Below, one piece after another: positions 14,815-20,364 of a stretch of DNA of 64,000 nucleotides; within the stretch, counting starts at the first letter, position 1; each line of letters starts with the position of its first letter. The notes beneath the pieces were generated by a model. That model had not been told where the DNA came from, did not search any database, and saw nothing but the letters and a program-made list of their open reading frames with translations. Source of the stretch: an uncultured Gemmatimonadota bacterium (GTDB lineage: Bacteria; JAAXHH01); assembly GCA_951812955.1 (NCBI GenBank), contig OX638340.1, forward strand, positions 3,488,001 through 3,552,000, read 5' to 3'. Both the position numbers and the translations under genes were made by a program.

Positions 14815-17800
14815 CTACCAGTCTGAACTGTCAGGAACTCCCGGGCTCACGACAATCTCCAACCCCGGTTCAGGCAGCACGCGCCGGGCCGGTGGTCCTC
14901 CCGAACCGTTAATAACCCAGTCGTGCAGAAATCCGCGCACCTGGCCAGTGAAGCGGTCCAGCAGCAGGACCGCGGCGCGGTCTCCTTCTCGGTCCTGCGT
15001 CGCAACGCCTTCAGGCCCTGAAAGGGTGATCTGATGCAGTCTCTCCGGCCAATCCGCCCGGATAGGCAGGATGAAGTTGAAGCTCCCGCCCTCACTGTCG
15101 CCGAGCCGGTTCATGTCGAAGGACAGATTGAACACGACACCACCGTTCGCGCTTTCTCCCGAGAGCTGGTACGGACCACTGGTCTGAGGAACGACCGGTG
15201 GCGCGTCGACGACGAATGCCGGTTCCAGCACGAGGTCGCCGTCTTCGCTTACGTGGCCCCAGAGCAGCAGTGCCTTAGTGACTGGGGCAGCCGACGCGAG
15301 CCTGACGTCCTTGGCCTGACGCCAGCCCAGTGCCTTGCTGAAACTGTAGTATCCGATCCACTCCGGCTCGCAATAACTCATCAGGTCGGGCCGGCTGGGG
15401 GAGATCAATTGCTCATTCACGAAATCGTAACCCCATGCGCCGATGGATCCGTCACGGTTCGGGTAATTGCGATCCGGTCCGGCGGGTCCTCCGCACGGCG
15501 CATGGCGTAGAGACAGGTTATGGCCGAACTCATGCGCGATAACCGGGCCCTGCAGCACGCTCACGCTCGAGAATTCCTTGTTGAGCCCAAGGAAAGCCCC
15601 CCCTACGTAAGCGATCCCAAGCAGTCCGTTGTCCCCTTGGCGCCGGAAAACACCCATGTAATAGGTTTCCGGCGAGCCTTCCATGTTGCGGATCGATTCG
15701 GTCAGTGTAACGAGTTCCTCGCCGTAATCCCCCGTCGGGTCGTACGAAACAAATACCGGGTCGTGAACGCTCACCGTAACGTCGCCCACCGGAAGATAGT
15801 CGCGGGTTTCGCGCAGGAGCTCGCCGTCCGCGGTAATGGCGTTGATTTCCGTAAGTATGGACCGGTCCGGGTTCTCGTCCCAGAGGAAGGGAACGATCAT
15901 GATGTCGAAGGAAGACACCGTCCTGACGTCGACAGACAGGCGGCCCTCGGGAGGTATGCGCTGTGCTATCTCGAGCGCCGAGTCCAGGGTGCCGTCCGGA
16001 TCGATCTCCACGACCATCTCCAGGCCCGTCTCGATGACGGATCCGGGAATCAAGGCGTTGGAGGACAAATCCAGTACGCCCTCTTCGATCTGTTCCGGGA
16101 TACCGGCAGACTGGCCCGGAATATCAACCTCGTGGGCGACCGATCCGTTGTGATAGAAGGTAGCCCGGACCGGAGGTATGCTGATTCCCTCGTTGCCCTC
16201 TCTTGCGATGAATACGCGCAGCAGGGCTTCATCGCCTTCAATCAGGGGAACGGGATCACCCACCGACTGTACGGACTGCGTGAGGTATGCGTAGGAGTCA
16301 GCGCCGACGAGCGTAGGTTTTTCCTTCACTTCGACGGCAACCGCGCCGGAGCAATTGTTCAGCGTGTCCGTTTCCCCGGATAGCGCATCCACGCAAGCAC
16401 CGTAGTAGTACGTACCCACGGGGTCGGAAGCCGTCAATACAATCCACTCGTCGTCAGTCTCAGCAGCGTCAAGGCTGGTTACGTAATCCGTTCCCACTTC
16501 CGTGTCGCCGCTGGTGATCGTCGCGTCGGCGGACTGGTAATAGCGAAGCGTCGTCGATGAAGCTGCGTCACCGGCGCCCTGGTTGCGGACCGTCACGCTC
16601 AGCGTGAACGAATCCCCGACCTCGGGATTGTCATTAGATACCGTTGGCTGCTCGAGAACCAGGTCGGGACCGCTGACGGTCACCATGACCGCGACAGAGC
16701 AGTTGTTCGCGGTATCCGATTCCTCGGACAGCGGATCCACGCAGGCGCCGTAATAGTACGTGCCGAGTGTCGCGGGTGCTCTCAGGGAGATCGACTCGTT
16801 ACTGGTCGACGAGGCCCGGAGCGATGAGACGTAATCGGTGCCAATCTCCGTGTCGCCGGACGTGATCGTTGCGTCCGTCGATAGGTAGTAGCGAAGTCTT
16901 GTGGAGGACGCGTTACCGTCGCCCTGGTTGCGTACGATGGCACTTAGTCTGAAACGCTCATCGCTGCTCAGTGCGTCATCGCTTACTGTCGGCGATTCCA
17001 CGATGAGGTCCGGCGCGAGCACGACGGGAATCCGGACGGTCACCTGGAACGCCTGTCTCGCGGTCAGGCTTCCATCGTCGGCCGTAACGGTAATGGTCGC
17101 GTTGCCCGCGGACTTGCCTTCCACCGTCACCACGCTGCCGGCCGTGGCCGCCGTCGCGACCCCCGCGTCCGACGTGGCGGCCGAGAAGGTCAGCCGGTCG
17201 TTATCGGGATCGCTGAAATAGGAGCTTACGGTAATTCGGACCGATTCGCCCACGTCAAGGTTCCGGGACGGGATCGCACCCTGTGCGACGGGCGCCTGGT
17301 TGACCGGTTGCCCCACGGTAACCGTCACGGCGACGGAACAGTTGTTTTGCGTATCGGATTCATCGGACAGCGCATCTACGCAGGCGCCGTAGAAGTACGT
17401 ACCCGTATTGGCAGGCGCATCCAGGCCAATCGATTCATCGCTGGTCTCAGACTGATCCAGGGAGGTCACGCGGTCCGTGCCGATTTCCGTATCGGTGGCC
17501 GAGATCGTGGCATCTGCGGAGCGGTAGTATCGCAGCGTTGTCGAGGACGAAGCGTCGCCGTCGCCCCGGTTGCGTACCGTCGCGTTAAATGTAAACCGGT
17601 CGCCCGGTTCAGGACTGCCGTCGCTGACAGACGGCGATTCCACGATGAGATCGGGACGTGGAATGACGGAACGCCGCACAGTGACGTCTATCTGTTGACC
17701 GGCGGTCAGGCTGCCGTCGCTGGCCGTGATGGTAATCGTCGCGTTCCCGGCCGACTCGCCCCTGATCGTCACCACGTCGTTCGGAATCAAGGCGGTTGCG

Positions 17801-20364: not shown

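Follow-up and report, generated by a model that had tools for sequence, protein, structure and literature searches.

How has a protease module that is usually preceded by leucine-rich repeats (LRR) come to stand behind a long array of quite different domains, and what may such an array be for? These questions are raised by a gene at 14815..20364 (-) in a 64,000-nucleotide stretch of an uncultured Gemmatimonadota bacterium (contig OX638340.1, positions 3,488,001 to 3,552,000; this whole stretch is called the window below, and all coordinates refer to it unless stated otherwise). The longest open reading frame (ORF) of the gene encodes 1849 amino acids (aa), comprising in this order a putative lipoprotein signal, a linker, a Big_2 domain, eight CARDB repeats with two cadherin-like units, and a metzincin module. 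An earlier note, made from the sequence alone, had listed the CARDB, cadherin-like and metzincin domains, all of which we found at the positions it gave and well above what chance would produce, but had omitted the N-terminal Big_2 domain. The gene is a domain-shuffled variant of a modular family of surface metzincins and not a new kind of system. Its product is rather probably a surface-tethered modular zinc endopeptidase on an immunoglobulin (Ig)-like stalk, which may also serve as an adhesive rod.

The protease module occupies the C-terminal 509 aa and consists of a catalytic domain placed between two beta-sandwiches. The catalytic domain (approximately aa 1486–1690, 15295..15909 (-)), already predicted in the earlier note, is recognized as a metzincin by its motif, its invariant residues and its fold. 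In the zinc-binding motif HEFGHNLSLRH (aa 1611–1621, 15502..15534 (-)) the histidine that serves as the third zinc ligand lies six residues after the second histidine, as the metzincin clan requires, and residues H1611, E1612, H1615 and H1621 are invariant in an alignment of 38 homologues, as is M1662. The latter residue, located within PDLMSYC (15379..15381 (-)), is the candidate Met-turn methionine and corresponds to the invariant M322 of alignment A1, in which module residue n equals aa 1340+n. The metzincin fold is present in the AlphaFold2 (AF2) model of the module (predicted local distance difference test score 85.2; predicted template modelling score 0.86), where the alpha/beta catalytic domain lies between the two sandwiches. 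The N-terminal sandwich (approximately aa 1346–1485, 15910..16329 (-)) is kept in all family members; neither it nor the C-terminal one (approximately aa 1691–1849, 14818..15294 (-)), both seen in the model, matched any family in the Pfam scan.

In its relation to known metzincins the protease is M66-like at best. When the catalytic segment was scanned alone, Pfam Reprolysin_3 scored 27.5 bits and Peptidase_M66 (PF10462) 24.8 bits. Several homologues carry the NCBI label 'M66 family metalloprotease'; among the NCBIfam models none matched the protease part, and only a DUF11-type repeat was found. A single-sequence phmmer search of the PDB (E<=10) returned only non-significant matches to adamalysin and fragilysin and did not retrieve StcE. 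When A1 was run as a profile against the PDB, the output consisted largely of plant LRR receptors. These are uninformative because some rows of A1 carry LRR tails; the only protease-related matches were to adamalysin and were weak.

The protein resembles two groups of known enzymes in part. With StcE/TagA (M66) it shares the HExxHxxxxxH of a metzincin and a Pfam M66 score just above the cut-off, but it differs from them in its predicted lipid anchor, its rod of CARDB and cadherin-like domains, its C-terminal beta-sandwich and the Ser that stands in place of Gly, and mucinase activity cannot be inferred for it. The M12B adamalysins/reprolysins (ADAM, ADAMTS, snake-venom metalloproteinases and fragilysin) gave the best, though non-significant, sequence matches in the PDB, with an identity of only 11–19%. 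Reprolysin_3 lies above its cut-off in our protein, which like these enzymes has a Cys pair near the active site. However, it lacks the disintegrin and other ancillary domains of ADAM proteins as well as a recognizable prodomain, and its flanking beta-sandwiches and putative N-terminal lipid anchor set it further apart.

The closest relatives of the module are found within the window itself. As the earlier note had stated, two other protease genes have LRR arrays instead of the CARDB array, 41083-46005 (+, 1640 aa) and 46064-50176 (+, 1370 aa), and their modules share 49–51% identity with the one described here. The two genes form a tandem pair, and an orthologous pair (L012) lies on the contig of a metagenome-assembled genome (MAG) that also carries a CARDB orthologue of our gene (L014); therefore the set of three paralogues is older than the split of these species.

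To see how far the LRR form and the CARDB form extend, two surveys can be compared. A word-index search with the module gave 1216 matches, of which those with names belong to Gemmatimonadota, Candidatus Palauibacter among them. LRR are present in nearly all of the best 120 matches, and CARDB in one. The scan of GTDB species genomes yielded 260 relatives, from which 78 loci with 91 protease ORFs were kept. LRR alone were present in 74 of these ORFs, cadherin-like units together with LRR in eight, and neither type in six; one ORF combined CARDB with LRR, and two had CARDB and cadherin-like units only. The LRR-fused homologues from Gemmatimonadota and from other sponge MAGs have the same three-domain module of about 500 aa (42–53% identity) and the same lipoprotein-type N-terminus, and they occur in the same genomes as the CARDB form, but in place of the rod they have LRR capsules of the plant type, to which Big_2 or one to a few cadherin-like units are sometimes added.

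In a neighbour-joining tree of 103 modules (489 columns) all CARDB-only proteases formed one clade nested among the LRR-fused forms. This clade adjoins the clades of the two LRR paralogues of the window and of their L012 orthologues, and the forms with arrays of cadherin-like units are scattered over the tree. Together, the census and the nested position of the clade bear out the earlier proposal that the part preceding the catalytic module may be exchanged, which we consider well supported. LRR seem to have been replaced by CARDB and cadherin-like domains a single time and in a single lineage. The family is a clear and well-supported example of surface proteases that swap the non-catalytic array and keep the catalytic module.

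The array itself is readily recognized. Pfam CARDB (PF07705) matched eight stretches with a total of 265.5 bits (E=2.7e-80; cut-off 22.7), and there are exactly eight copies of the motif GTY[YF]YGACVD, at aa 307, 424, 541, 658, 774, 988, 1201 and 1317, so that the number of repeats given in the earlier note was correct. All lie on the minus strand: repeat 1 (aa 221–338, 19351..19704 (-)), repeat 2 (aa 339–455, 19000..19350 (-)), repeat 3 (aa 456–572, 18649..18999 (-)), repeat 4 (aa 573–689, 18298..18648 (-)), repeat 5 (aa 690–800, 17965..18297 (-)), repeat 6 (aa 904–1014, 17323..17655 (-)), repeat 7 (aa 1118–1232, 16669..17013 (-)) and repeat 8 (aa 1233–1345, 16330..16668 (-)). Each was identified with Pfam, and repeats 5 and 6 also have structure models; modelled repeat 5 matches the fold of a solved CARDB domain (3idu). 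Profile and structure comparison agree, therefore, that the repeats are of the CARDB or Ig-like type. Repeats 1–3 are 73–79% identical in pairwise comparison and the remaining CARDB pairs 48–68%; Tandem Repeats Finder (TRF) reported a 351-nt repeat in 2.9 copies, which is the tandem array of CARDB 1–3.

As proposed earlier, each repeat ends in a GTYYYGACVD...NNCS signature, but the spacing is GACVD-x6-D-x2-NNCS, with six residues and not four after GACVD, the Asp position is occupied by Ser in repeat 5, and repeat 6 reads GTYFYG. The added conserved Cys pair of this signature distinguishes the repeats from the solved CARDB domains of the same Pfam family (PF1109 of Pyrococcus furiosus, 3idu; MA_4588 of Methanosarcina, 2l0d). 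There are exactly two cysteines per CARDB repeat and two in the catalytic domain, and none is left unpaired after Cys41, which would fit an exported, disulfide-bonded protein. It should be mentioned that a 792-aa LRR lipoprotein encoded elsewhere in the window ends in one CARDB domain of the same two-cysteine subtype (36602-38980 (+); 149 bits to the repeat hidden Markov model (HMM), Pfam CARDB E=8e-12). Thus, the CARDB unit has also been shuffled into protease-free paralogues.

The two cadherin-like units follow CARDB repeats 5 and 6, as the earlier note had it, with the motif SSYF[TS]DPD at aa 833 and 1047. When the units were scanned alone, K1 (aa 801–903, DPDGD, 17656..17964 (-)) scored 32.2 bits with Big_9 and 25.3 bits with Cadherin_4, and K2 (aa 1015–1117, DPDND, 17014..17322 (-)) scored 33.8 bits with Big_2, 31.7 with Big_9 and 27.0 with Cadherin_4, the cut-offs of Cadherin_4 and Big_9 (PF17803, PF17963) being 25.1 and 23.6; in the scan of the full-length protein Cadherin_4 stayed below its cut-off at 21.4 bits. 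The units are 58% identical to each other, and the model of K1 is a beta-sandwich. Since extracellular cadherin (EC) domains are no closer a match to the fold of the units than Ig-like domains of other kinds, the term 'cadherin-like' is valid only in a loose sense. One unit of the same type is encoded by the ORF at 1477-2253 (-) (33.7 bits to the K-unit HMM).

Whether such a repetitive gene is intact can be judged from its orthologues. An exhaustive HMMER search with aa 690–1849 retrieved the orthologue P0121, a protein of 1849 aa that is 94% identical without any gap and is encoded on a 585-kb contig in the same gene neighbourhood; the window's own protein is also already present in a public protein collection, without a name. 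Between the two genes the ratio of nonsynonymous to synonymous substitution rates (dN/dS) was 0–0.3 in most domains, and therefore purifying selection acts on the entire array. The part that has diverged most is the module's C-terminal beta-sandwich (82% identity, dN 0.10). It could still be argued that the gene is inactive or decaying, coding for a pseudo-protease, or that its repeat array is an assembly artefact: repeats often mis-assemble, the orthologue in locus L001 is frameshifted, locus L002 breaks off inside the last CARDB repeat, and the metzincin motif is missing its Gly. We consider this very improbable. The ORF is intact across 5.5 kb, an independent assembly gave a protein of the same length, and dN/dS is well below 1. 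The invariance of the catalytic residues across the family, the gap-free orthologue and the dN/dS values led us to reject pseudogene, assembly artefact and inactive protease alike.

The position of the array suggests a different possibility, in which it would be the binding part that the earlier note saw in it: a targeting module, the functional counterpart of the LRR capsules, which binds a specific ligand or substrate, for example a host matrix or cell-surface glycoprotein, so that array swaps would retarget catalysis. It stands where the LRR array stands in the paralogues and in 74 of the 91 family members, the module is joined to cadherin-like arrays and to Big_2 elsewhere in the family, purifying selection acts on individual repeats, and the Pfam descriptions class CARDB and cadherin-like domains as adhesion-related. 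Nevertheless, the residues conserved across the repeats, namely the Cys pair, the aromatic GTYYYG strand and the acidic/Asn loop, look structural. In addition, the number of repeats varies between close orthologues, which is more spacer-like than would be expected of a defined binding site. Read with purpose-built HMMs for the CARDB repeat (R), the cadherin-like unit (K) and the module, the architecture of our gene is R5-K-R-K-R2-protease (eight CARDB, two K), that of L014 is R4-K-R-K-R2-protease (seven CARDB, two K), and L001 and L005 both have R5-K-R-K-R-K-R-K-R2-protease (ten CARDB, four K). Targeting by the array is accordingly possible but in our opinion doubtful.

The same variation in copy number (7, 8 or 10 CARDB and 2 or 4 K) favours a stalk, or a stalk combined with adhesion. 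So does the finding that the same units build giant protease-free proteins: among the best 150 representative proteins, 128 consist of CARDB or CARDB/K arrays of up to 5724 aa with no protease, and ten carry the protease module. Six of the 150 join arrays of cadherin-like units (K7–K9) to the protease, and in one the protease is fused to K14-(R-K)3. The repeat types of the giant array proteins (1000–5700 aa) are 45–65% identical to those of the window, whose array, in contrast to theirs, ends in a protease.

Several points weigh against the interpretation as a stalked surface protease or against parts of it. The array could equally be a targeting module, because it replaced a known ligand-binding module, the LRR. 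In the catalytic motif, Ser takes the place of the Gly expected from HExxHxxGxxH, and both paralogues have Asn there; the missing Gly is a family-wide departure from the canonical metzincin motif. The M66 assignment is borderline, with a score of 20.7 bits for the full protein at a cut-off of 20.6 and a match that covers only profile positions 196–252 (57/306), and StcE is not the best structural match of the module; for these reasons no substrate can be inferred from the family assignment. The lipobox of bacterial lipoproteins follows the pattern [LVI][ASTVI][GAS]C, and the Thr that precedes the putative lipobox Cys of our protein is atypical for position -1. Finally, the module tree is a neighbour-joining tree without support values.

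If the interpretation is nevertheless followed, the protein would be exported and then tethered to the membrane by a lipid on Cys41. A flexible linker rich in Pro, Thr and Ala would be followed by eleven beta-sandwich domains (one Big_2, eight CARDB and two cadherin-like ones with DxDxD), which at about 4 nm per Ig-like domain might form an extended rod of approximately 40 nm, stabilized by disulfides and perhaps by calcium. The three-domain protease module would sit at the tip. In this arrangement the rod, having taken the place that LRR arrays occupy in front of this module in the paralogues and most of the family, would be mainly a stalk and possibly an adhesive surface that presents the protease away from the cell. 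The enzyme would cut proteins outside the cell, which probably belong to a marine sponge as host or matrix proteins.

At the N-terminus, the putative signal peptide (20242..20364 (-)) contains a hydrophobic stretch followed by the lipobox-like L-F-T-C, which ends in Cys41, and by GKDSPT; the motif (...TCG[KR]DSPT) is kept in paralogues and orthologues, which speaks for an extracytoplasmic location. The L005 and L014 orthologues begin with MSRIAKFG... and MYRTASVG..., at the position that corresponds to Met12 in the longest ORF; in L005 this start is directly preceded by a stop codon. The ATG at 20331 (20329..20331 (-)) is therefore the likely start, and Met12 is probably the real first residue. 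The linker contains the 21-nt tandem repeat reported earlier as encoding PQTAATA, which TRF located at 20123..20185 (-) in 3.0 copies with 90% matches, the copies being translated as PQTAATA, PQTAATA and PQATAAV. The Big_2 domain (approximately aa 85–166, 19867..20112 (-)) scored 26 bits in a Pfam scan of the isolated N-terminal segment, at a cut-off of 22.8.

The region around the lipobox is also shared more widely. A near-identical ...[TSR]-C-[GA]-[KR]-D-[STN]-P-T is found at or after the lipobox Cys in six large lipoprotein-like ORFs of the window, namely our gene (20242-20264 (-)), 2537-9769, 9799-11454, 36602-38980, 41083-46005 and 46064-50176, as well as in the L005 and L014 orthologues and in two full-length database homologues. 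It may serve to sort surface lipoproteins in this lineage. A strict regular expression gave 0 matches in the first 120 homologues, most entries being N-terminally truncated gene calls.

Directly upstream of the protease gene lies the gene of a partner lipoprotein (20382..22145 (-)), in which Pfam recognizes Big_2, two cadherin-like/Big_9 units of the K1/K2 type (71.7 and 57.0 bits to the K-unit HMM) and a plant-type LRR capsule, in accordance with its earlier description as a Big_2/cadherin/LRR lipoprotein. The spacer of 17 nt claimed in the earlier note (20365..20381 (-)) is correct for the first ATG of the ORF and is conserved at 16/17 positions in the orthologous locus L004; counted from Met12, the real distance between the genes is probably about 50 nt. 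In L004 (94% identity), L014 (73%), L005 (61%) and L001 the protease gene is likewise immediately preceded by a homologue of the partner gene. The pair has the same strand, a short spacer (17 or 50 nt), no terminator-like site between the genes in a consensus scan, and conserved adjacency, as an operon would. The same scan gave a promoter-like site upstream of the partner gene (TTGTAA-17-TATCAT, 22191..22219 (-)) and, about 57 nt past the stop codon of the protease gene, a stem-loop and T-run resembling a terminator (14731..14758 (-)); both are weak evidence because the numbers of such sites equal the chance expectation.

From this arrangement one might suppose that the two genes act as a unit, the co-expressed LRR lipoprotein supplying in trans the recognition that the paralogues carry in cis. 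The close spacing on one strand, the adjacency in four related genomes with upstream proteins that are 61–94% identical, and the K-type unit common to both proteins speak for it. Yet the adjacency may reflect tandem duplication only. Tandem genes of the LRR or protease type are common in the window (2537/9799 and 41083/46064), so adjacency alone is no proof of functional coupling, and the genomes that contain the pair are all close relatives. We therefore regard a two-gene unit of this kind as rather unlikely.

The interpretation as a stalked surface protease leaves the ecological setting to be considered. Many family members occur in MAGs with sponge-related names (Ca. Palauibacter irciniicola, SB06xx and RHO bins), and Palauibacterales are reported to be frequent in sponges and marine sediments (PMC10469786); the source genome is probably that of a sponge-associated Gemmatimonadota. 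Proteases are not mentioned in the paper on Palauibacterales (PMC10469786), and no publication describing this protease family turned up in our literature searches. The wider value of the gene lies in its family: lipoprotein-type metzincins have expanded strongly in Gemmatimonadota and also in other MAGs, of which many derive from sponges. If host matrix or surface proteins are the targets of these enzymes, the different arrays would offer a way to study targeting in the symbiosis of sponges and microbes.

It should be mentioned that members with 42–52% identity were also found in MAGs labelled as Latescibacterota, Chloroflexota, Acidobacteriota/Vicinamibacteria/Terriglobia, Deltaproteobacteria and Pseudohongiella (loci L006, L008, L009, L013, L019, L021, L039, L061, L072 and L082). 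Several of these MAGs and the Gemmatimonadota MAGs were obtained from one series of sponge metagenomes. This occurrence across phyla suggests either horizontal spread or binning errors. Speculatively, the LRR lipoprotein and the CARDB-stalked protease might be a split LRR-protease fusion, in which the LRR partner recognizes a sponge host molecule in trans and the rod of variable length sets the distance of the protease from the symbiont surface, the family being a horizontally spread, cross-phylum toolkit for remodelling the host matrix; we think it quite improbable that all of this holds together.

Genes so rich in repeats are often truncated or broken in public annotations. Apparent frameshifts divide the L001 orthologue (304-7007 of a low-coverage contig) into three gene calls, L002, a MAG contig from NCBI, begins inside the last CARDB repeat, and many database entries of the protease family begin inside the LRR region.

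As for the rest of the window, nothing in the gene neighbourhood pointed to a defence or phage origin. The ORF at 2537-9769 (+) encodes a lipoprotein-like protein of 2410 aa that consists almost entirely of LRR capsules (12 LRR_14 stretches and one Big_2) and in which no protease motif was found; it is followed in tandem by the gene of a 551-aa Big_2/LRR lipoprotein (9799-11454). The G+C content is 0.47 at 22001-24000 as compared with about 0.60 elsewhere in the window. This stretch contains an ORF with no Pfam match (22272-22979 (-)) and a gene for an outer membrane protein beta-barrel (23025-23600 (-)). In L001 and L005 the homologues of both are located downstream of the protease gene and not upstream of the LRR gene, and their altered position points to a local rearrangement.

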